64,000 nt of DNA, from the IMG/VR virus record IMGVR_UViG_2529293038_000017, positions 23,342-87,341 of that record; one strand, given 5' to 3'. The translations under genes were made by a program, and so were the position numbers. The DNA comes from a virus (taxonomy: Duplodnaviria > Heunggongvirae > Uroviricota > Caudoviricetes). Position 1 is the first letter of the stretch. Every line of letters begins with the position of its first letter. The notes beneath the pieces are model-generated. The model saw nothing but the letters and a program-made list of their open reading frames with translations, was not told where the DNA came from and did not search any database. Positions 3,802 through 23,697 of the stretch are shown piece after piece.

Positions 3802-4374
3802 TTACAGCTCAGATTGAGTTTGGCGCTTCTCTACAGGATGATAACGATAAATCGTCGATACACCGATATCGTAAATAATTGCCAACTGTTTCCTGCTGTA
3901 GCCATTTTCGATCAACCTCGCTATTTGCTCATGTTGTTCTTTTGTCAACTTCGGGCGACGTCCGCCAATGCGTCCCTGTTCGCGTGCAGCTGCCAGTCCG
4001 GCCAGTGTTCTCTCAACAATTAATTCACGTTCCATTTCTGCTAAAGCCCCCATGACGTGAAAAAAGAAACGCCCCATGGGTGTTGATGTGTCAATACTGT
4101 CTGTCAGACTACGGAAATTAACACCTTTTTCCCGCAACTCCTCTATAAGCGTGATAAGGTGTTTCATACTTCTGCCAAGCCTATCCAGCTTCCAGACAAC
4201 CAGCGTATCTCCTTCTGATAACGTTCTGAGCAGCTTTTTCAAGCCTGGTCTGGCTGACTTTGTTCCGCTTATTTTATCTTCAAAAATCAGTTCACATCCT
4301 GCGCAGTTCAGTGCATTTCTTTGTAAATCTGTGTTTTGGTCATTTGTTGACACACGAATGTAGCCAATTTGCAT
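3802..4374 (-). CDS. cin: Cin-type serine DNA invertase
   Basis: IGYIRVSTNDQ catalytic motif, LDRLGRS, C-terminal HTH; start set to ATG 4374 (AAGAGG 9 nt upstream) rather than track TTG at 4383; adjacent to invertible fibre segment. Confidence 0.9.
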   Translation of the reverse strand: MQIGYIRVSTNDQNTDLQRNALNCAGCELIFEDKISGTKSARPGLKKLLRTLSEGDTLVVWKLDRLGRSMKHLITLIEELREKGVNFRSLTDSIDTSTPMGRFFFHVMGALAEMERELIVERTLAGLAAAREQGRIGGRRPKLTKEQHEQIARLIENGYSRKQLAIIYDIGVSTIYRYHPVEKRQTQSEL

Positions 4375-7763: not shown

Positions 7764-8603
7764 TCACGCATCGCTATCCAACAGCAAATCATCTGCGCGG
7801 GTGCGATCAAACGTAGGCGTTGCTTTCACAATAGTGCCGCCCGGCGTTGCAGTGATCGGGGCGTTAATCGACGTAACTTCAGTAAGCGAAGTTGTATCCG
7901 AAGTTTCAAACCAGCAGAATGCTTTTTCGGTATCAGAAATCTCATTCAAAGTGATCATGTCGGCCTGTTCATTTACAACAACCGACAAATAGAGCGTAAG
8001 CCCATCAAACACTATATGCAGTGGCAGTAGAGGCTTTACGAACTGATTAAACTTTCTGAGAATTTCTTCTGTAATTGCGGACTGATCTATCGTTCCAGTA
8101 ATACCCATTGTCCGGGCCAGGTCGTTTATGGGAATACTGATCATTCCTCTGGAAGTCAGAAACATCTCGCCGAATGTGCCGCCGGTGGTTTCCAGTGTGC
8201 TTTCTGGAATCAGGACCGTGCCATAGGGATGACGTTCAAAGTCCACCGGAGCATATATTGGATCCCATAAAACCGATATACCGTTAAATTCGCGATAAAT
8301 TGTCTGGTTTATAGGGCGTTCAGTACCCTTAAAATGGATCTCATCAAACCGCTGTTGTAACAACATCGGAACGGAAGATGAATTCGACGTTCTGATAGTA
8401 AAAAACTGGCCAAGTTCATTTGTCCTAGTCTCCAGATCCTCCTTGCTCATGGAGAAAATAGACTTCCGGTTGGTAATTCGCTCCAACCATGGGTCAACAA
8501 AGGTGTCCATCATTGACTGAACCAAATCAGCCAATGATTTATAAAGTAATGACTTTTGCTTAGCTGATGTAAGCCGGTTATTAAACCAGGAACGCTGCAT
8601 CAC
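7764..8603 (-). CDS. baseplate/tail structural protein (279 aa)
   Basis: ORF in tail operon; ATGA overlap with upstream gene. Confidence 0.45.
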   Translation of the reverse strand: MMQRSWFNNRLTSAKQKSLLYKSLADLVQSMMDTFVDPWLERITNRKSIFSMSKEDLETRTNELGQFFTIRTSNSSSVPMLLQQRFDEIHFKGTERPINQTIYREFNGISVLWDPIYAPVDFERHPYGTVLIPESTLETTGGTFGEMFLTSRGMISIPINDLARTMGITGTIDQSAITEEILRKFNQFVKPLLPLHIVFDGLTLYLSVVVNEQADMITLNEISDTEKAFCWFETSDTTSLTEVTSINAPITATPGGTIVKATPTFDRTRADDLLLDSDA

Positions 8604-10033
8604 TCCTCCTCATACGAAATATTAAAGGTGGAGTTTTCTGTATCCAGATAAACGAAATCGTAAAAGCCGTTGGACTCATTCCACTCGACAAATTCCAGAT
8701 AAAAGTCGCGGAAATAACCCAGCGTTTCGATAAATGCCCAAACGTCTTTTTTCTTGATTAGGATGTACTTGCCGACACGGTTCGGATCAAAGAAAGTTGA
8801 GTCACGCCCAAATTTTGTTTCCAGTGCCGACTTCAGCTCATCAGTCACGTTCTCAATGGTCAGGCTTGCCGATATCCGCCCAGTGATAGTGATCTTAAAG
8901 GGGAGTTTTCTGACCTCTTTATACGAGAATTTCTTGTTCAACTCATTCGGCACCTTCTTAAAGGCAGCCAGGATCACTTCTTCAAGCTCTGACTGGCTTT
9001 TGTTTGGATGCCATCCTGAAATAAATATCTTATTGATATTCCGAACATTATAAGCACCATCTAATTTCTCTTGCTGGCCTTCGCCCCATGCCTTTACCCA
9101 GGACAGTCCCGGGATGTTACGCACCAAAAAATACGTATAGTCCCCGCCCCATACGACCTGATCATCATAGGCAAGGTAATATTGTGCACGATTACGTGTG
9201 ATCTCCGTTGTTTCGGCATCGGTACCTGCGGTTATGGGTGTCGTTGTCTTAACTGAAATCAAATTAGCTAAATTAGCCGCAGAATCGACAGGCGTCAGGT
9301 TTTGGCCAGCAACCAGGGTTATATCTCCGTTGGTGCACCATACCTTAAGTGTAATGGTCGAGCCTTCTGGCGGTATTTGCCCAATTAGCCCATCACCGAA
9401 TCGAACCCCCAACTGCTCGGATGGCTTATAAAACTCAACGTAGACCTGGCTTTTACTACCGGCTAACCGGAACATAGTGCTGGAAGACCACTGCGTGGTC
9501 TTACCATCGGTCGTCACGAATACTTCCAGCTTATAGCAGACAGCAGTGAGAGCCTTTGATAACACGACTTCCAGAAATTCTTTGGCTGCCGTAACGGTAT
9601 ATGTCACCTCCTGGATTTCCAACTGTGCCACTTCTACCGTACCGGTGCCGTCAACCAACCTGCATACATCCATAGTCATGTAAGGGTACTGGTCGTCAGA
9701 TATTAAAGGCATATTTTTGGGGATTACCGCTGGGGCATCTTCACTTGTGGCGGTGATCTCAATCATCCCCGATGACGGTGTTGGCTTGGTACCAACGTAA
9801 CTATTCGTTTCTGCCGCTGCCAGGATAGAGGAACGCCGCGTCGCGGTCGATATAAAGCCTTCAGCCAGCGCCGCATCGGCATACTGAAAGCACCTGTAGA
9901 CAATCTGGGTAATAAACAATGTCAGCATCGAGACAAATTGAGAGCCGACAAACTTCGACCAGAATGAATCTTTCTCGACAAGCTCTTCAAACTCTGCACG
10001 AATACTGTCTTTAGTCGGTGTTGTTTTACTCAT
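8600..10033 (-). CDS. baseplate wedge protein (J/gp6-like, 477 aa)
   Basis: Size and position between gp25-like gene and fibre genes; overlapping start/stop. Confidence 0.45.
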   Translation of the reverse strand: MSKTTPTKDSIRAEFEELVEKDSFWSKFVGSQFVSMLTLFITQIVYRCFQYADAALAEGFISTATRRSSILAAAETNSYVGTKPTPSSGMIEITATSEDAPAVIPKNMPLISDDQYPYMTMDVCRLVDGTGTVEVAQLEIQEVTYTVTAAKEFLEVVLSKALTAVCYKLEVFVTTDGKTTQWSSSTMFRLAGSKSQVYVEFYKPSEQLGVRFGDGLIGQIPPEGSTITLKVWCTNGDITLVAGQNLTPVDSAANLANLISVKTTTPITAGTDAETTEITRNRAQYYLAYDDQVVWGGDYTYFLVRNIPGLSWVKAWGEGQQEKLDGAYNVRNINKIFISGWHPNKSQSELEEVILAAFKKVPNELNKKFSYKEVRKLPFKITITGRISASLTIENVTDELKSALETKFGRDSTFFDPNRVGKYILIKKKDVWAFIETLGYFRDFYLEFVEWNESNGFYDFVYLDTENSTFNISYEEE

Positions 10034-10389
10034 AGCACCACGTCCTGTGTGATAGTTATATCCCTGATACGAATGGATATTTTCAACTTATCAAAAGCAT
10101 CTCCCTCGGCTACTGACAAGCCAGAAATCGGTATGTCAGGTAAATCTACCGTCAGTTTTTGCAACAGCATTGCCTCAACCGCAATTTGAACATGCGACAA
10201 GTTGGTCGGTTCGTGTTTAAACTGCGGTAAAACATTGCCCCATGACGGATCTCCGTATACCTCACCCTGATAAGTGTTTAGCCACTCATATAAACGAGCG
10301 CCCCAGGCCTCCTCCTGGGACTCATACGTTTTTACGCCGGATAACTCCAGCGTCAGCAAAGGATCAATTTCGTTATTGTTGGCCATCAA
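10030..10389 (-). CDS. small baseplate protein (GPW/gp25-like, 119 aa)
   Basis: Size and position directly downstream of sit; overlapping stop/start. Confidence 0.4.
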   Translation of the reverse strand: MMANNNEIDPLLTLELSGVKTYESQEEAWGARLYEWLNTYQGEVYGDPSWGNVLPQFKHEPTNLSHVQIAVEAMLLQKLTVDLPDIPISGLSVAEGDAFDKLKISIRIRDITITQDVVL

Positions 10390-13376
10390 TCAACTCTCGC
10401 GTAGTCATTCATCAACGGATCATCAATTGACAGTGGTACCGTGCGCATAACGCCCGGCTGAGGCGTGCTGACCTTTACGACAGTTCCCTGGCCTTTCGCC
10501 GAGTCTTTGGTGTGCTCTTCAATCCTGGCAAGCAATGAGGTCATCTGCGCAAACAGCCGCTTCGTTTCACCATCAAGTGAAACGGTATTATCAGCCAACT
10601 GCATTGTCGGCTTGGCACCGGAACCGCCAAGGTCACTAATAACCTGCCCGTCTATCTGCATACGACCGGTTGGTTGCTGCAAATCGTTGGCGGCAGTCGT
10701 CACCTGGGACGTGGAGGCTGGTTCAGGCGCATTATTTTTCCGCATCCCCGGCGAGTTGCGGAGTTTATCGAATAGTCCATCAATCCCCATTTGTGCGCCG
10801 AGATGGTCAAAGTAACTTGAGTTGTTGGCCACCGGACGCGCCTCTTCAACTGGCATCGGAGTATCAACATACACATTGCCAGCTGCTGTTGCGGTCCCCT
10901 TCTCTCGTGCACGTTCTTCTAGCGTTCCCTGAACGACTTCCCGACGCATCCCCCGGCCATTCATGAATTTGTTGACCAGATCGTTAACGCCAACAGCATT
11001 GCCGATTTTGTCGACCAGACCGCCTTTCTCAAACGGGCTATCACCAGGGGTAAACGCCAGGCCAGTATACTGATCGATAACAGCGTTATCAGGCAGTGGT
11101 CCCCTCACTCCATATTGCGCCCCACCCTGTGCTCCTGCTCCAGGTGTATAGATTTCACCACCTAAATAGCGAGCACGATGAGTATTGACCTTGATCGCGT
11201 ACTCACGGTTTTCTTTCGATAAGTCACCGGTGCCTTTTTTCCACTTATTAATAGTGCCAAACCCAGCATTATATGCAGTGATGGCCTCGTTTAAGTCTCC
11301 ATTGGCTTGCTTAAGATACTTGCTCATGAGAAGAGCCGCAGCTTCTGCCGATTTCACAGGATCAAACGATTCACCTTCAGCTAAGCCAGTCTCTTCACGA
11401 GCAATCCCCGTGAACTGAAACATCCCCAGAGCACCGGTTTGGGATTTTGCATACGGATTACCACCAGATTCAGTTGCAGCAATCGCGTAAAGAGTGCCTT
11501 CTGGAAGACCGTATTTATTCTCTAGTTCGGCAAAATACGGAGCCAACTTATCGAGATTTGCCTTACCTTCAGCGCCAAGACTTCCGACTTTTACATCTAA
11601 GTTGCCATTGTTGTAAGTATCCGCAGCTTTCTGAATGTCATTCCTGGTGCCAGTGGTATTAAGCGACGATGATGACGAGCTATTTTGACCAATAGCTTTA
11701 TCAATTTTCTGCAACGCGCTATTGCCCGTTTCTACGGCATTTGCATTGATAATCTGATTGGCAGTTTGTTTAACTGTTTTATTGCTATCTTTCGCTGTGT
11801 CCAGTGCCGCATTTATCACGCGGGTAGCAATATTACTCTGTTTGGCATCGGATTCAGTTTTAGAATCAGACGTCTCCTGGTGGCTATTAACCGGAGCTTT
11901 TAACTCCGGAGTGATTTCTTTCGCATTAGCCTCGCCGATCGGATTGGGTATTTTTGATACAATCATTGCCGCAGGGGTATTTTTAACGGCATCAACCGCT
12001 GCATCTAATGCTTTACCAGGTAAATTTTTAACCCCATCCCAAATATTACCAGCCGCCTCTTTAATGTGTTTCCCTGGGTTCTTAATGAAATCAATTGCAC
12101 TATCAATTGCATCACTGAAAACCTGTTTCAGGTTATCAACAGTAAAGAAGTCTTTGATGGCATCCAGCTTTTCAAGCAGCTTATTAGATGTATCGCTAAA
12201 CCATGCTGAAACAGCATCACCAATCTTTGCTGTGTAATCTTCGAACTTGGTAGAAATGGTGTCGCCAAGGTTAGAAATATATGTTTCTAAGTTGGTAATC
12301 CCACTATCAATGGCCTGGGCAATACTTTCCGTCGAAAATGATTGCAACATATTGCCGATATCCTCAAATCCAAGTGATTTGAGAACCTCACCAATGGCGC
12401 TGCTAATACCAGATACCAGTCCCCCCATATCAAGAACATTGGCTAACGTATAAGCGGCTTTTTGCTGGAATGATGGCTCTTGTCCTGATTTAAGCCCAAA
12501 CGCTCGACGTTGCGCTTCTGTATCATTCCAACCGGTTACCGCATCATAAATACCTCCAGCCACTGTGCCGACTAAGGGAATTGCGCGTAACGCCCCTTTA
12601 CCAACTGCCTTTAATCCAAATTTACCTGCTGCCCGGGCAGCCAAATCTCCACCTTCATGGGCGATAGTCTTCTTGCCACCACCGCGTAGCATTCCTACAA
12701 GTTTCTTTGCCCCCAGAGCGCCAAAAGCGAGTGCTCCAGCTTTTTTCAGCATGCCACGCCCCATTAACAACGACGCGACGCCACCGGCCCCCTTCCCTAA
12801 CAGGCTAAATAGTTTGGACAGCAAGCCGCCCTTCTTTTTCCCGGTGTTTTTGGCTATCTGATCAAGGGCGCTGAGAATCTTGTCATTGCCCTCTTTAATT
12901 TCGCTGGTCTGCTCCTGAAGTTCCTGAACCGTCCGTTTTTGGGTGTTAACCTGAACGACATCGGCACTATTTTGCGATTTACGCCTAAAAAAACCTTTTC
13001 TACGGCTGTTATCGTCATTGCCACGAATCACATCGGCAATAGACTTTCTGGCGCCATTAAGCGATCCACCAACTTCTTTTGATATCCCGCCAAGCTCCTT
13101 CCCTGCTGCCCACAATGGACCAGCAACGGCATAACCTAACGCATCGACGGCACGAGTCTCTGAAGGGTTACCTATGCCTTCAGCTACTTTTGACAGTTTT
13201 TTTAATAAACCTGATTCAGCATTTAGACGCTCATCATCCTCTTTGCGCCTGGCCTTTTCAGCACGTTCAGCACGGGCATCTTCCGCTGCGGCCTTACTCC
13301 CTGACTTTCCAATAAAACGACCACGCGCATCGCGTTGGTTTTGGCTTTTTTGCGCACCGCCTTTTTGATCGAACAT
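10386..13376 (-). CDS. sit: Sit-like tape-measure/injection protein with lytic transglycosylase domain
   Basis: 996-aa ORF; SLT motifs (ATESGGNPYAKSQTGALGMFQF, AYNAGFG); Gly/Lys-rich N-region; no RBS before ATG 13376 and frame open upstream to the A6 run at 13445..13450. Confidence 0.8.
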   Translation of the reverse strand: MFDQKGGAQKSQNQRDARGRFIGKSGSKAAAEDARAERAEKARRKEDDERLNAESGLLKKLSKVAEGIGNPSETRAVDALGYAVAGPLWAAGKELGGISKEVGGSLNGARKSIADVIRGNDDNSRRKGFFRRKSQNSADVVQVNTQKRTVQELQEQTSEIKEGNDKILSALDQIAKNTGKKKGGLLSKLFSLLGKGAGGVASLLMGRGMLKKAGALAFGALGAKKLVGMLRGGGKKTIAHEGGDLAARAAGKFGLKAVGKGALRAIPLVGTVAGGIYDAVTGWNDTEAQRRAFGLKSGQEPSFQQKAAYTLANVLDMGGLVSGISSAIGEVLKSLGFEDIGNMLQSFSTESIAQAIDSGITNLETYISNLGDTISTKFEDYTAKIGDAVSAWFSDTSNKLLEKLDAIKDFFTVDNLKQVFSDAIDSAIDFIKNPGKHIKEAAGNIWDGVKNLPGKALDAAVDAVKNTPAAMIVSKIPNPIGEANAKEITPELKAPVNSHQETSDSKTESDAKQSNIATRVINAALDTAKDSNKTVKQTANQIINANAVETGNSALQKIDKAIGQNSSSSSSLNTTGTRNDIQKAADTYNNGNLDVKVGSLGAEGKANLDKLAPYFAELENKYGLPEGTLYAIAATESGGNPYAKSQTGALGMFQFTGIAREETGLAEGESFDPVKSAEAAALLMSKYLKQANGDLNEAITAYNAGFGTINKWKKGTGDLSKENREYAIKVNTHRARYLGGEIYTPGAGAQGGAQYGVRGPLPDNAVIDQYTGLAFTPGDSPFEKGGLVDKIGNAVGVNDLVNKFMNGRGMRREVVQGTLEERAREKGTATAAGNVYVDTPMPVEEARPVANNSSYFDHLGAQMGIDGLFDKLRNSPGMRKNNAPEPASTSQVTTAANDLQQPTGRMQIDGQVISDLGGSGAKPTMQLADNTVSLDGETKRLFAQMTSLLARIEEHTKDSAKGQGTVVKVSTPQPGVMRTVPLSIDDPLMNDYARVD

Positions 13377-13414: not shown

Positions 13415-14074
13415 TTATATCCTCTGATATAGCCTTCCTGCGTCTTTTTTACCCTTTGGTGTAGTTGATTTGGCCTGCTGTTCCTGTTGAGCAATGCCCT
13501 CCTGAACTACACGAGAAACGTCCCCTAAATTAAGCCGTTTCATTGCGTCAACAATAGGGTCTACTGATGGCGCATTGGCCACAAAGTCTGGCCGGGAATT
13601 TTCGATTGTTCGATTTAATGCCGACACACTGCGAGATACTGGGTCAACCGTTGCAACGCGTTCCCCTTTCAAATCACGAGCGAGTTTGACCGTTTCTAAC
13701 CGCTGTGCTTTAACATCCTCTGTTATTGCCTCTCTTCGTCTATTTGGGGGATTGTGCGCTGTTGGTGCAGCCTGCTGTTCACGGTTAGTGACTTTGTCCT
13801 CCCGTATACGAGAAACGTCCCCTAAATTAAGCCGTTTCATTGCGTCAACAATAGAGTCCACTGATGGCACATTGGTCACAAAGTCAGGACGTGAATTTTC
13901 GATTGTGCGATTTAATGCCGACACACTGCGAGAGACAGGATCAACAGTTGCAACTCGTTCCCCTTTCAAATCTTCAACAGCTTCCCGAATACCTGCAAGC
14001 TCTTCCAGCTCTTTCGCGCTGGCGGTTTCAACTGTCCTTATAACATCGTCAATATTGGCGTTTTTTCTTTCCAT
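13415..14074 (-). CDS. 219-codon frame in -1 register with sit; likely N-terminal segment of the Sit protein (frameshifted) or separate gene
   Basis: Ends 38 nt before sit ATG; contains two near-identical ~185-bp repeats (period ~297 bp); A6 run at the exact point where the sit frame opens. Confidence 0.55.
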   Translation of the reverse strand: MERKNANIDDVIRTVETASAKELEELAGIREAVEDLKGERVATVDPVSRSVSALNRTIENSRPDFVTNVPSVDSIVDAMKRLNLGDVSRIREDKVTNREQQAAPTAHNPPNRRREAITEDVKAQRLETVKLARDLKGERVATVDPVSRSVSALNRTIENSRPDFVANAPSVDPIVDAMKRLNLGDVSRVVQEGIAQQEQQAKSTTPKGKKDAGRLYQRI

Positions 14075-15673: not shown

Positions 15674-16264
<591 letters not shown>

Positions 16265-16298
16265 TTAACCGATTCTACGAGTAGTCATTTGTGACAGG

Positions 16299-16775
16299 TT
16301 ATTTTGCGCGCTTCAGGCAGCCATCTTCAGGTGCCGCGTTGAAAAGCTCTGCGGCCTTACGTAGCGTAAATGTTGCGATTTTTTTTCCGTCTACGTATGC
16401 ATCGAATGTTTTAACTTCCATATCAGGGGTATCTGACCAAAAACCATACCAGTAACTATCACCCACAGAGGAACCGATAGAACTGATAGGATATTCATCA
16501 TCACCAACTTTCAGCGTTATTTGTTCTTTTTTAGCATCAAATGACTCACCGCCAGGTTCTGTTTTCATGAGAGTGAGTAGTCGTGTTCCTACTTGATTGG
16601 GATCCGTATTATTAAATCCAACATCGCACTCAAATGTAAGCGTATAATTATCTTTGCTGGAAACAGCATAAGAGCGAACGCCATGAGTCTCGCTGGTGGA
16701 CCATTTGCTTACATTTGCCATTGATGAAAACGGAGTAAGCAAAGCAAGAATTAGAAAATATCGTTTGATGCGCAT
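16299..16775 (-). CDS. secreted protein with signal peptide (158 aa)
   Basis: N-terminus MRIKRYFLILALLTPFSSMA. Confidence 0.55.
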   Translation of the reverse strand: MRIKRYFLILALLTPFSSMANVSKWSTSETHGVRSYAVSSKDNYTLTFECDVGFNNTDPNQVGTRLLTLMKTEPGGESFDAKKEQITLKVGDDEYPISSIGSSVGDSYWYGFWSDTPDMEVKTFDAYVDGKKIATFTLRKAAELFNAAPEDGCLKRAK

Positions 16776-16826
16776 TAATTTATCTCCTTTGGATATTAAT
16801 ATTTTAATTAGTTAACCACCATATAT

Positions 16827-17474
16827 TCACCATTCATAGGGTAAATTAAGCGCTTTTAAACCTTGCTGGAAAGTATTAAGAGAGCCGTTTTTTTGTTGTT
16901 CCATTTTTTCGCGTGCAGCTTTCTCATACTGCTCCATCCGTTGGTTATACTCTTGCAATTCCTCCGGGGAGAGGTTTCCCATTGGGGAGTTTGTACCCGG
17001 CCCCCTGGCCCGTTCTTCAAGCGTACCCTGAACGTTTTGATGGCGCATTCCCGGGGCGTTTCTGATTGAATCAATGCCATTTCTTCCAACGTCTTCTTTA
17101 TTAACGGCATTGCTCGCCACCAGTACGCCCCAGCTAGGGATAGCAAAATCAGGAGCGGTTTCGCATGCCTTTACCATATAATCGAAAGAGCTTCGATTGA
17201 TCTCGTTTGCGTCGGGATTTAATAGGCGAGAATATTGATATTTAGCATTTTCGTTGGTTGCGACTTTATACAGTTCTTGCTGCACCATCGCTTCAGAAAG
17301 TTTAAGGCGTTTCATATCTGATAGTAACTTCTTGCGCATGGATTCGTCTTGACTGACAGCAAAACCGTAAACGTGCCCAAGGTATTTCGTATAATCGGTA
17401 CAAATCTCCTTTACGCTTGATGCTGCATTAACAGTCCCAGCCATAAATAATAACGGTAGTAATAGTTTTCTCAT
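16827..17474 (-). CDS. Sim-like secreted superinfection-exclusion candidate; carries a Sit-derived motif
   Basis: Start set to ATG 17474 (AGGTGAGG upstream) giving signal peptide MRKLLLPLLFMAGTVNA; segment NAPGMRHQNVQGTLEERAR matches Sit (GMRREVVQGTLEERAR, NSPGMRKNN) at protein and DNA level. Confidence 0.55.
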   Translation of the reverse strand: MRKLLLPLLFMAGTVNAASSVKEICTDYTKYLGHVYGFAVSQDESMRKKLLSDMKRLKLSEAMVQQELYKVATNENAKYQYSRLLNPDANEINRSSFDYMVKACETAPDFAIPSWGVLVASNAVNKEDVGRNGIDSIRNAPGMRHQNVQGTLEERARGPGTNSPMGNLSPEELQEYNQRMEQYEKAAREKMEQQKNGSLNTFQQGLKALNLPYEW

Positions 17475-17569
17475 TATAACCTCACCTGCCTTATAACTCA
17501 TTTAGGGTACATATTTTCGCCTTTAAAAAAAGAGGTTATTAGATCCAATTGTGTATTTATTAAGCATAT

Positions 17570-17586
17570 AATGCTCTAATAAATTT
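17570..17586 (+). promoter_or_regulatory. C1-repressor-type operator upstream of immI-like operon
   Basis: AATGCTCTAATAAATTT, 1 mismatch to recalled P1 operator consensus ATTGCTCTAATAAATTT. Confidence 0.65.
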
Positions 17587-17624
17587 GTATTTTTAAGTCG
17601 CGAATGCTATCTTTTCGCATCATA

Positions 17625-17653
17625 TTGACCTTTTAATCGTTCAGGCTTATAGT
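17625..17653 (+). promoter_or_regulatory. sigma70-like promoter (TTGACC-17-TATAGT)
   Basis: Hexamers with 17-bp spacer, upstream of c4-like/icd/ant region. Confidence 0.4.
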
Positions 17654-17749
17654 TCCGCCGTCGTAGCAAATTCTGCGACCGGGTTTAGCAGCCTGAATGA
17701 TTGTGCGGACAGCCGCAGATATCCGATATTGCGGTATTTTTGTGTCCGT

Positions 17750-22881: not shown

Positions 22882-23697
22882 TTAGCCAAGGCGCTTACGG
22901 CGCAGTTTCATTGACTTTTTGCGGGCAAGTTTTGCCGCGCCGGTCTGGGCTTTTCGACGCGCTTTTTTCAGCGCCGATTTTTGAGCCGCAGTCAGACGTT
23001 TTTTACGCAGGCGTTTACGGATGAGTTTGATCTCACCGTTACGAACAACCTTCTTAAATGCTTCAGTCAGCATTTCATCAGAAGTGCCAGCAACAACAAA
23101 CGCCGCTTCCAGTTCGTCGCGGTCGTCGCTATCTAAACCAGCGATAGAGGCACCAACATCAGCAGCAGCGTCGTCGTCTTCATCGTCAGCCAGTGCTTCG
23201 ATCAGGTCATCATCTACACCGCATGCTGCGAGGAAGTCAGCAACATTTGCCCATGCTTCGTTATAGGCATCGTCCTGTTCTTCTGTAACTTCGGAGTCGT
23301 CGTCATCAGAGATACCAGCGATAGCCTGAACGAAACCATCAAGGGAGTCGAAAGTCAGATCACCGCTATCAGCCCAGGAGAAAACGGCGTCGGCCGCATC
23401 ACTCAACGCATTCTGCATAGCACTTCGATTTGCAGCTTCCAGAATCATCTGGTGCGCCTGTTCGACGGTCCATTCTTTACCGTCTTTCCCTTCCAGGATT
23501 TGCTCTGGAGCCGGGGCAGATGGAACGTTATCGTTAGTCTGTGCCGCCGGTTCCGGATTATTATTAATAACCGGATCTGTTGGCGGTTCGGCGCTTGCTC
23601 GGGCAGACTCCATCAGCTGCACAGGATCAGAGTTCAAAGCGAAACGGGACAGTCCATTCCCCAAAAATGCCCCGGATTGAAAAAAGTTTTTGCTCAT
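22882..23697 (-). CDS. acidic protein with basic C-terminal tail (271 aa)
   Basis: Asp/Glu-rich core, KKRLTAAQKSALKKARRKAQ tail; between sheath-like and downstream structural genes. Confidence 0.45.
   Translation of the reverse strand: MSKNFFQSGAFLGNGLSRFALNSDPVQLMESARASAEPPTDPVINNNPEPAAQTNDNVPSAPAPEQILEGKDGKEWTVEQAHQMILEAANRSAMQNALSDAADAVFSWADSGDLTFDSLDGFVQAIAGISDDDDSEVTEEQDDAYNEAWANVADFLAACGVDDDLIEALADDEDDDAAADVGASIAGLDSDDRDELEAAFVVAGTSDEMLTEAFKKVVRNGEIKLIRKRLRKKRLTAAQKSALKKARRKAQTGAAKLARKKSMKLRRKRLG

Follow-up and report, generated by a model that had tools for sequence, protein, structure and literature searches.

How the DNA of contractile-tailed phages passes across the periplasm and the inner membrane is poorly understood. 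Exclusion proteins that act at the tape-measure step are known, and Ltp of Streptococcus phage TP-J34 and gp15 of HK97 are two that target the tape-measure protein. In Enterobacterales, P1-like phage-plasmids commonly carry resistance genes. The Imm protein of phage T4 excludes by binding the T4 tape-measure protein (bioRxiv 10.64898/2026.03.06.709160). In P1, Sim blocks the superinfecting phage at the injection step (PMC8546580), and the exclusion activity of SimC has been established by experiment (Kliem & Dreiseikelmann 1989, cited in PMC8546580). P1 Sit has been assigned as the tape-measure protein (PMC12810830, PMC10695390), and it was not resolved in the cryo-electron microscopy structures (PMC12810830). 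The sit gene is essential in P1, and the sim genes are non-essential (PMC10695390). We analyzed a stretch of 64,000 nucleotides (the window; IMG/VR record IMGVR_UViG_2529293038_000017, positions 23,342 to 87,341), whose whole region is identified as that of a P1-like phage-plasmid. Its sim locus contains the gene of a full-length SimA-family protein, termed SimAL in this report, which shares a motif of ~25 residues with Sit. The original prediction, made from the letters alone, had described the product of this gene as a Sim-like secreted protein with a segment derived from Sit, and had proposed that it excludes by mimicry or by competition for a Sit partner during DNA entry.

Both SimAL (16827..17474(-), where (-) marks the minus strand of the window) and Sit (10386..13376(-)) have the pattern F-x-N-x-x-G-M-R-x-Q-x-V-Q-G-T-L-E-E-R-A-R-G-x-G-T, and the consensus of the two families is F-x-N-[AGS]-[PR]-G-M-R-[HRQ]-[QE]-x-V-[QE]-G-[TS]-L-x-[ED]-R-A-[RY]-G-x-G. 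The Sit-like linear motif of SimAL, GIDSIRNAPGMRHQNVQGTLEERARGPGT, lies at 16992..17075(-) with its core NAPGMRHQNVQGTLEERAR at 17004..17060(-), and was detected by BLASTP, profile, hhalign and hidden Markov model (HMM) searches. In Sit, a first copy, KFMNGRGMRREVVQGTLEERAREKGT, is located at 10893..10970(-), where GMRREVVQGTLEERAR is found, and it is conserved in five Sit orthologues. A partial second copy, GIDGLFDKLRNSPGMRKNN, is located at 10731..10787(-), and it contains the NSPGMRKNN that had been noticed originally.

Pairwise BLASTP aligned SimAL and Sit with 22/48 identities (E=1e-7), and the second Sit copy was reached with E=0.014. Among the PHROG profiles SimAL matched the Sit family phrog_2533 (E=9e-8, positions 929-972 of 1130), and reciprocally Sit matched phrog_3933, the family of SimAL, with E=2.8e-5. 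The alignments of the two families, compared by hhalign, matched over 23 columns (E=2.5e-5). When an HMM was built from the five Sit orthologues only, SimAL scored 55.3 bits (E=1.5e-16 among the 1,155 six-frame open reading frames (ORFs) of the window), and the best unrelated ORF reached 9 bits. An HMM of the SimA family only gave 27 bits for Sit (E=1.7e-7), and the domain i-Evalue of the second Sit copy was 0.0014-0.0024. On the strength of the pairwise alignment and of the Sit-only HMM, the similarity that had been claimed between the two proteins is real and goes far beyond chance.

The motif was then followed outside the two genes. No third ORF of the window with the motif was found. The C-terminal 95 residues of SimAL, compared by tblastn with 50,697 phage genomes, recovered, apart from the SimAL gene, only Sit genes in P1-like phages, which reached E=6e-4 at the scale of that database, and E=3e-5 in the case of Cronobacter phage JK004 Sit. 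In IMG/VR (2.9 million contigs) the back-translated pattern GMRx[QE][VNK][VT][QE]G gave 137 matches, 121 of which were confirmed; the 80 retained loci comprised 43 Sit and 37 SimAL genes, and no other family. A search of a 5.8-billion-protein set returned Sit and SimAL fragments only, which is a weak negative owing to thin sampling (63 candidates). Sequence searches of the PDB with the motif and with the family profiles gave no matches, and literature searches turned up no account of either the motif or full-length SimA. We conclude that the motif is private to two families of P1-like elements.

Relatives of both proteins conserve the segment, a point on which the original prediction had made its reading depend. 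Across the five Sit orthologues, which share 58-70% identity, G-M-R, V-V-Q-G-T-L, R-A and G are invariant. A more distant Sit fragment (P0074, 49% identical) has KLRNAPGMRHQVATGSIADRAYGTGT, which follows the pattern RNAPGMRHQV..GS.ADRAYG.GT. When the window Sit is compared with three distant orthologues, identity amounts to 61-71% in the motif block, 43-60% in the upstream linker and 16-20% in the downstream insert. In the Salmonella-type plasmid of locus L082 the octapeptide NAPGMRHQ is identical in its own Sit and SimAL. In Sit the motif lies in a flexible linker, which separates the SLT lytic transglycosylase domain (11208..11537(-), residues 614-723 in the 996-amino acid (aa) ORF; Pfam PF01464, E=7.5e-27) from a conserved C-terminal module. 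When residues 560-996 of Sit were modelled with AlphaFold2 (AF2), the SLT domain alone folded confidently, and the motif had a predicted local distance difference test (pLDDT) score <50, with short helices predicted at low confidence on both sides of G-M-R. The model is compatible with a peptide that would fold on binding.

The second Sit copy sits inside a ~60-aa insertion that is present in E. coli P1-type Sit and missing in Salmonella and Cronobacter Sit. This copy and its surroundings vary (FDKLRNSPGMRKNN, YDKLINARGMRSNN or FDKLRNAPGMRKSN) among otherwise near-identical E. coli Sit proteins, which may reflect diversifying selection.

Within the SimA family, the motif is placed at the junction of a conserved helical N-terminal domain and a variable tail. 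The member P0030, which is 33% identical to SimAL overall, has NAPGMRHQAVKGSMAERARGDGT, and the motif is the top 23-residue window of mature SimAL in this comparison (17/23, rank 1 of 176). P0027 keeps the long motif (NAPGMRHQKVEGSLMERARGPG), and the farthest member, P0035, has DFSNVEGMRAQ, so that the F.N..GMR.Q core is kept. In short-form SimAL lineages (JK004, L006 and L047) NAPGMR[HQ]Q runs directly into a Cys-x~30-Cys module. The P0017/L048 type has both the long motif and this Cys module, which suggests that the short forms arose by deletion.

The original prediction had also read the nucleotide similarity as proof of homology. The string CGTTCTTC.AGCGT.CCCTGAACG is indeed present in both genes, with 36/48 nucleotides (nt) identical, but codons agree no more than usage predicts. 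For this test, identical degenerate residues of Sit and SimAL were scored for use of the same codon, and the count was compared with the expectation from codon usage. The same codon was used at 5/15 residues in the window (expected 4.8), at 4/16 in L082 (expected 5.4) and at 4/15 in L004 (expected 4.5). The DNA similarity adds nothing beyond amino acid identity and codon usage. The motif segment has a GC content of 0.61, against ~0.40, and this spike reflects its amino acid composition. Since the peptide and not the DNA is conserved, the silent sites being randomised, purifying selection on the peptide is indicated in both proteins. We regard it as highly probable that the two proteins share a genuine motif and that selection maintains it in each.

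That sit and the SimAL gene exchanged sequence recently, by gene conversion or transfer, was rejected on the codon test and on the difference in GC content at third codon positions (GC3), which is non-significant (p=0.11). With no trace of recent exchange, no significant GC3 difference and no cognate co-variation, derivation of the SimAL segment from Sit is not supported. The window SimAL agrees better with a Salmonella Sit (20/33) than with the Sit of its own element (16/33). Distant members of both families have the motif, and ancient capture of a fragment, in either direction, or convergence could account for the sharing.

Counted from its first in-frame ATG, at 17501, the ORF that encodes SimAL extends over 16827..17501(-) (224 aa). 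Translation probably begins further in, at M10 (the ATG at 17474), which gives 215 aa; this ATG is preceded by a GGTGAGG Shine-Dalgarno sequence, and the annotation of Escherichia phage vB_EcoM-Ro157c2YLVW has the same 648-bp coding sequence. SimAL matches phrog_3933 over the entire profile (positions 1-213 of 213, E=4.8e-137), and NCBI/UniRef labels its homologues 'simA domain protein'. In a profile search of 1.84 billion representative proteins the SimA family comprised just 12 clusters at 50% identity, and no remote homologue outside the family, nor any link to a fold or function, was found. Likewise, Pfam, NCBIfam, PADLOC and PDB sequence searches gave no assignment for SimAL, and outside the motif neither SimAL nor the neighbouring YfjT-like protein (see below) has similarity to other ORFs of the window. 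A partial match to PF14566 (PTP-like phytase) was rejected: its score of 26.4 bits falls short of the cut-off of 27, and the catalytic C-x5-R loop is absent, as the sole candidate cysteine context, KACETAPDF, has no arginine at +6.

The family architecture consists of a signal peptide, the conserved helical N-terminal domain, the motif and the variable tail. The signal peptide claimed for the sim-locus protein can be read in its sequence: residues 1-17, MRKLLLPLLFMAGTVNA (17424..17474(-)), are predicted to form a Sec-type signal with a basic n-region, a hydrophobic core and V-N-A at -3 to -1, and cleavage is expected between MRKLLLPLLFMAGTVNA and ASS. N16 and A17 are invariant across the SimA family, and the N-terminus has no lipobox cysteine. 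The conserved N-terminal domain (mature residues ~18-135, 17070..17423(-)) is predicted to be all-helical, and the family has an invariant cysteine pair, C25/C104 in the 215-aa numbering. Since the Sec signal peptide lacks a lipobox and two cysteines are invariant, SimAL fits a soluble periplasmic protein. An AF2 model of SimAL from a 13-sequence alignment had helical secondary structure with a pLDDT of 43. The C-terminal tail (16830..16991(-)) is variable and is predicted to be a long charged helix; in relatives it is swapped for the Cys-x~30-Cys module or shortened. Several database versions of SimAL with 205 aa (P0002, P0004, P0007, P0008 and P0016) shift, right after the motif, to the frame of the ORF at 16856..17146. 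A G/C run at ~16990..17010, just after the motif, is the site of this frame switch, which could be a real indel polymorphism or an assembly error.

When the P1 sim genes were translated, the 52-aa P1 SimA was found to equal SimAL over residues 1-45, and then to diverge into a stop. Because of this match, P1 'simA' is, as judged from its sequence, a truncated remnant of the gene that is intact in the window. P1 SimA (P1_gp043, 'putative superimmunity accessory function') is encoded at the same locus, with upstream DNA 97% identical and an identical signal peptide, but it ends ahead of the conserved domain and lacks the motif, whereas SimAL is intact at 215 aa. The P1 simA gene (L001 3009-3167) corresponds to window positions 17343..17501. 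In P1 a simB-simC cassette stands in place of the remainder of the SimAL gene and of the YfjT-like gene. Like SimAL, P1 SimC, a periplasmic exclusion protein, is encoded at the sim locus and has a signal peptide, and it is non-essential (PMC10695390); unlike SimAL, it has no GMR motif, and BLASTP did not align SimAL with SimC at E<=10, nor with SimB. The description as Sim-like thus holds for SimA, whose first 45 residues are identical, and fails for SimC and SimB, to which there is no BLASTP similarity.

The SimAL and SimB/SimC arrangements alternate among loci. Among IMG/VR and genome loci whose flanks were long enough to judge, an intact SimAL gene followed by a YfjT-like homologue was counted at 40 loci, and a SimA stump together with SimB and SimC at 19. 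Locus L048 (9974-11451) is a hybrid: its 212-aa SimAL has both the long motif and the Cys module, the next gene encodes a diverged SimC homologue of 260 aa, and there is no YfjT-like gene.

Taken together, these features allow a mechanism to be proposed. The prophage would place SimAL in the host periplasm. When a related phage contracts its tail, it would eject Sit into the same periplasm, and the motif of resident SimAL would compete for the partner whose binding by the Sit motif is needed for the DNA route to open. This target might belong to the host envelope, or be a further part of the injection machinery. Delivery of the DNA would then fail, and superinfection would be excluded through mimicry of the motif. 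The secreted protein encoded downstream, YfjT-like in most lineages and a SimC homologue in one, would probably act together with SimAL.

We tentatively favour exclusion by mimicry, in which SimAL competes for a Sit partner, although it may well prove wrong. It is favoured because the motif is significant, conserved in both families and restricted to them, with its synonymous sites randomised; because SimAL has a predicted signal peptide and an invariant cysteine pair, alternates with SimB/SimC and is adjacent to a SimC homologue in L048; because sim is dispensable and sit essential, and AF2 leaves the motif region unfolded, as expected of a binding peptide; and because T4 Imm provides a precedent for an exclusion protein that acts on a tape-measure protein. 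The fuller proposal, that exclusion by tape-measure mimicry reveals an essential interaction site in the C-terminal linker of Sit which engages a host or phage partner at entry, is rather doubtful as a whole. As proposed, SimAL would resemble T4 Imm, TP-J34 Ltp and HK97 gp15, which are phage-encoded, located in the envelope and active after adsorption, at the tape-measure step; for SimAL the envelope location is predicted from sequence. It differs from them in that they are membrane proteins or lipoproteins and SimAL is predicted to be soluble, and, to our knowledge, none of the three has been reported to copy the tape-measure protein's own sequence. No homology of SimAL to proteins of the Imm, Ltp or gp15 type was found in PADLOC, NCBIfam and PDB searches.

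Several observations weigh against exclusion by mimicry, foremost the missing phenotype and the loss of the motif extension in some lineages. We know of no exclusion phenotype for SimAL, and P1 exclusion maps to the unrelated SimC, for which the activity is established; that of SimAL is putative. Nor do we know of a binding partner for the motif. The AF2 models of SimAL and Sit are too poor for docking. The JK004, L006 and L047 SimAL types keep NAPGMR[HQ]Q only and have lost the QGTLEERA extension, and since several members have lost it, the long motif is not indispensable for the role of the SimA family. There is no co-variation between the motifs of a phage's own Sit and SimAL. Finally, a consensus scan revealed no strong minus-strand promoter upstream of SimAL.

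Among the alternatives, direct action of SimAL on Sit survives best, and we consider it unlikely. Here the motif would serve Sit for self-association or for docking within the molecule, for instance onto the SLT domain or inside the tape-measure oligomer, and SimAL would enter the ejected Sit as a dominant-negative subunit or block its SLT domain. The presence of two motif copies in P1-type Sit is compatible with a repeated self-interaction element, but Salmonella and Cronobacter Sit have a single copy, and the motif shows no evident coiled-coil or amphipathic repeat. It lies ~80 residues past the SLT domain, in a linker that is unstructured in the monomer model. T4 Imm binds its tape-measure protein directly, and T4 Sp, which blocks the gp5 lysozyme, offers an analogy for a SimAL that blocks the Sit transglycosylase. 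The objections raised to competition for a Sit partner apply here as well.

It is quite improbable that the motif is a recognition or processing site shared for a periplasmic host protease or chaperone, with no decoy involved, at which Sit is cut or handled once it has been ejected, and SimAL is cut to free its tail or to mature. Such a site would explain why the motif lies exactly at the domain/tail boundary of SimAL, why a common variant ends three residues past the motif (GPGVAP and a stop) and another inside it, and why the two Sit copies flank a hypervariable insert. The shortened variants are, however, accounted for by exchange of the cassette (loss of homology at 16995, return at 16299), and ~25 conserved residues are more than a cleavage site would be expected to need. 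We know of no such protease site, and even if the motif were such a site, SimAL would still be a competitor.

Still poorer prospects attach to an evolutionary relic, an ancient fragment that moved between sit and a sim-locus gene, in either direction, and was kept for local structure in each protein with no functional link between them. The two genes are 3.5 kb apart on the same strand and replicon, the sim locus is a recombination hot spot (PMC9603915), and some SimAL lineages have lost the extension of the motif. Against this, no other stretch of SimAL is so well conserved at 33% overall identity, and in Sit the motif forms an island of conservation. Synonymous sites are saturated. Independent retention of the same 25 residues in two unrelated structural contexts is unlikely. 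A chance likeness of two low-complexity Gly/Arg-rich stretches, which the GC-rich (0.61 vs ~0.40) segment with its abundance of G, R, A and E might suggest, can be set aside, as it is refuted by the Sit-only profile (55 bits, E=1.5e-16, vs 9 bits for the next ORF), by significance at the scale of a whole phage database and by the reciprocal profile matches.

The shared peptide pinpoints ~25 residues of Sit and a natural candidate inhibitor for the study of DNA entry. If the decoy idea, with SimAL competing for a Sit partner, is true, it would represent a new logic of superinfection exclusion, in which the interaction peptide of the target is copied, and it would explain the swaps of secreted-protein cassettes at the sim locus of P1-like phage-plasmids. 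If it fails, P1 'SimA' is still to be re-annotated as a remnant, and an unstudied two-gene secreted module is present in about one third of P1-like plasmids. The copy of a tape-measure peptide, SimA as a remnant and the SimAL/YfjT-like module appear not to have been described before.

The second gene of this module codes for a 158-aa YfjT-like secreted protein (phrog_3429; 16299..16775(-)), which adjoins SimAL downstream in most lineages. Its orthologues in L004, L006 and L082 match Pfam PF27224:YfjT. Across diverged cassettes (L004 10646-11140; L041 10581-11087; L003 3543-4019) the YfjT-like proteins have 27-33% identity and two conserved cysteines. The PADLOC-DB defence models gave no match for SimAL, for the YfjT-like protein or for SimC.

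The upstream control region (17502..17700(-)) is 97% identical to P1 DNA that carries a predicted sigma-70 promoter, PsimA, and the C1 operator Oc4. The sequence AATGCTCTAATAAATTT at 17570..17586, between SimAL and the c4/icd/ant operon, matches the position of P1 Oc4; therefore, the control region of SimAL is shared with the immunity-I region. From the predicted PsimA of P1 we infer that SimAL is expressed in the lysogen.

The surrounding gene order is that of P1. On the minus strand the order follows the P1 late block pmgC-tub-pmgB-sit-pmgA-bplA: bplA lies at 8600..10033(-) and pmgA at 10030..10389(-), and sit, pmgB, tub and pmgC (15674..16240(-), flanking the sim locus) come in order after pmgA. 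The c4/icd/ant immunity region is on the side of the sim locus opposite to the late block. The interval from pmgC to the immunity region carries simC-simB-simA in P1, and here two signal-peptide ORFs, 16827..17474/17501(-) and 16299..16775(-). SimAL is also placed between pmgC and c4/icd/ant in Ro157c2YLVW, in JK004 and in Salmonella plasmids, and the P1 locus is arranged likewise. Window positions 16200-17700 are 98% identical to Escherichia phage vB_EcoM-Ro157c2YLVW, and P1 itself matches only the last ~365 bp of this segment. In PLSDB, 267 plasmids of ~68-128 kb matched, 263 of them predicted to be non-mobilizable, and full-length SimAL was found in 84 of the matching plasmids.

The sit gene is split in the window. 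The 996-aa C-terminal ORF described above (10386..13376(-)) matches phrog_2533 with E=0 over profile positions 135-1130 and carries the Pfam SLT domain; a 219-aa N-terminal ORF lies at 13415..14074(-) and has an internal repeat of ~99 aa. Apart from the motif SimAL shares nothing with Sit: it has no Pfam SLT match, no tape-measure repeats and no counterpart of the conserved C-terminal module. The split is caused by a 1-nt deletion in an A-run at ~13450 (A6 here, A7 in locus L014), and L014, identical at 3900/3901 positions, encodes an intact Sit of 1237 aa. Because sit is essential in P1, either the prophage is defective or the A-run contains a homopolymer sequencing error. The N-terminal part of Sit contains an in-frame duplication of ~99 aa, with a 165-bp self-match at 92%; Tandem Repeats Finder reported no tandem repeats in sit. 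Across P1-like loci the length of Sit ranges from 1108 to 1271 aa, the N-terminal repeat being seen also in L011-L078. Given this variation in a tape-measure protein, a polymorphism in tail length is predicted.

The sim region is a recognised variable region and recombination hot spot of P1-like plasmids (PMC9603915). A frequent 163-aa variant of SimAL ends in ERARGPGVAP and a stop; in it, homology to the window is lost at 16995 and regained at 16299. Between these points the replacement DNA encodes a diverged YfjT-like protein and a 394-aa SH3_3-domain protein. In L041 (10480-12354, in place of window 16995..16299) these are a 168-aa YfjT-like protein and a 394-aa protein with a C-terminal SH3 domain (PF08239, E=1.1e-5, just below the cut-off).

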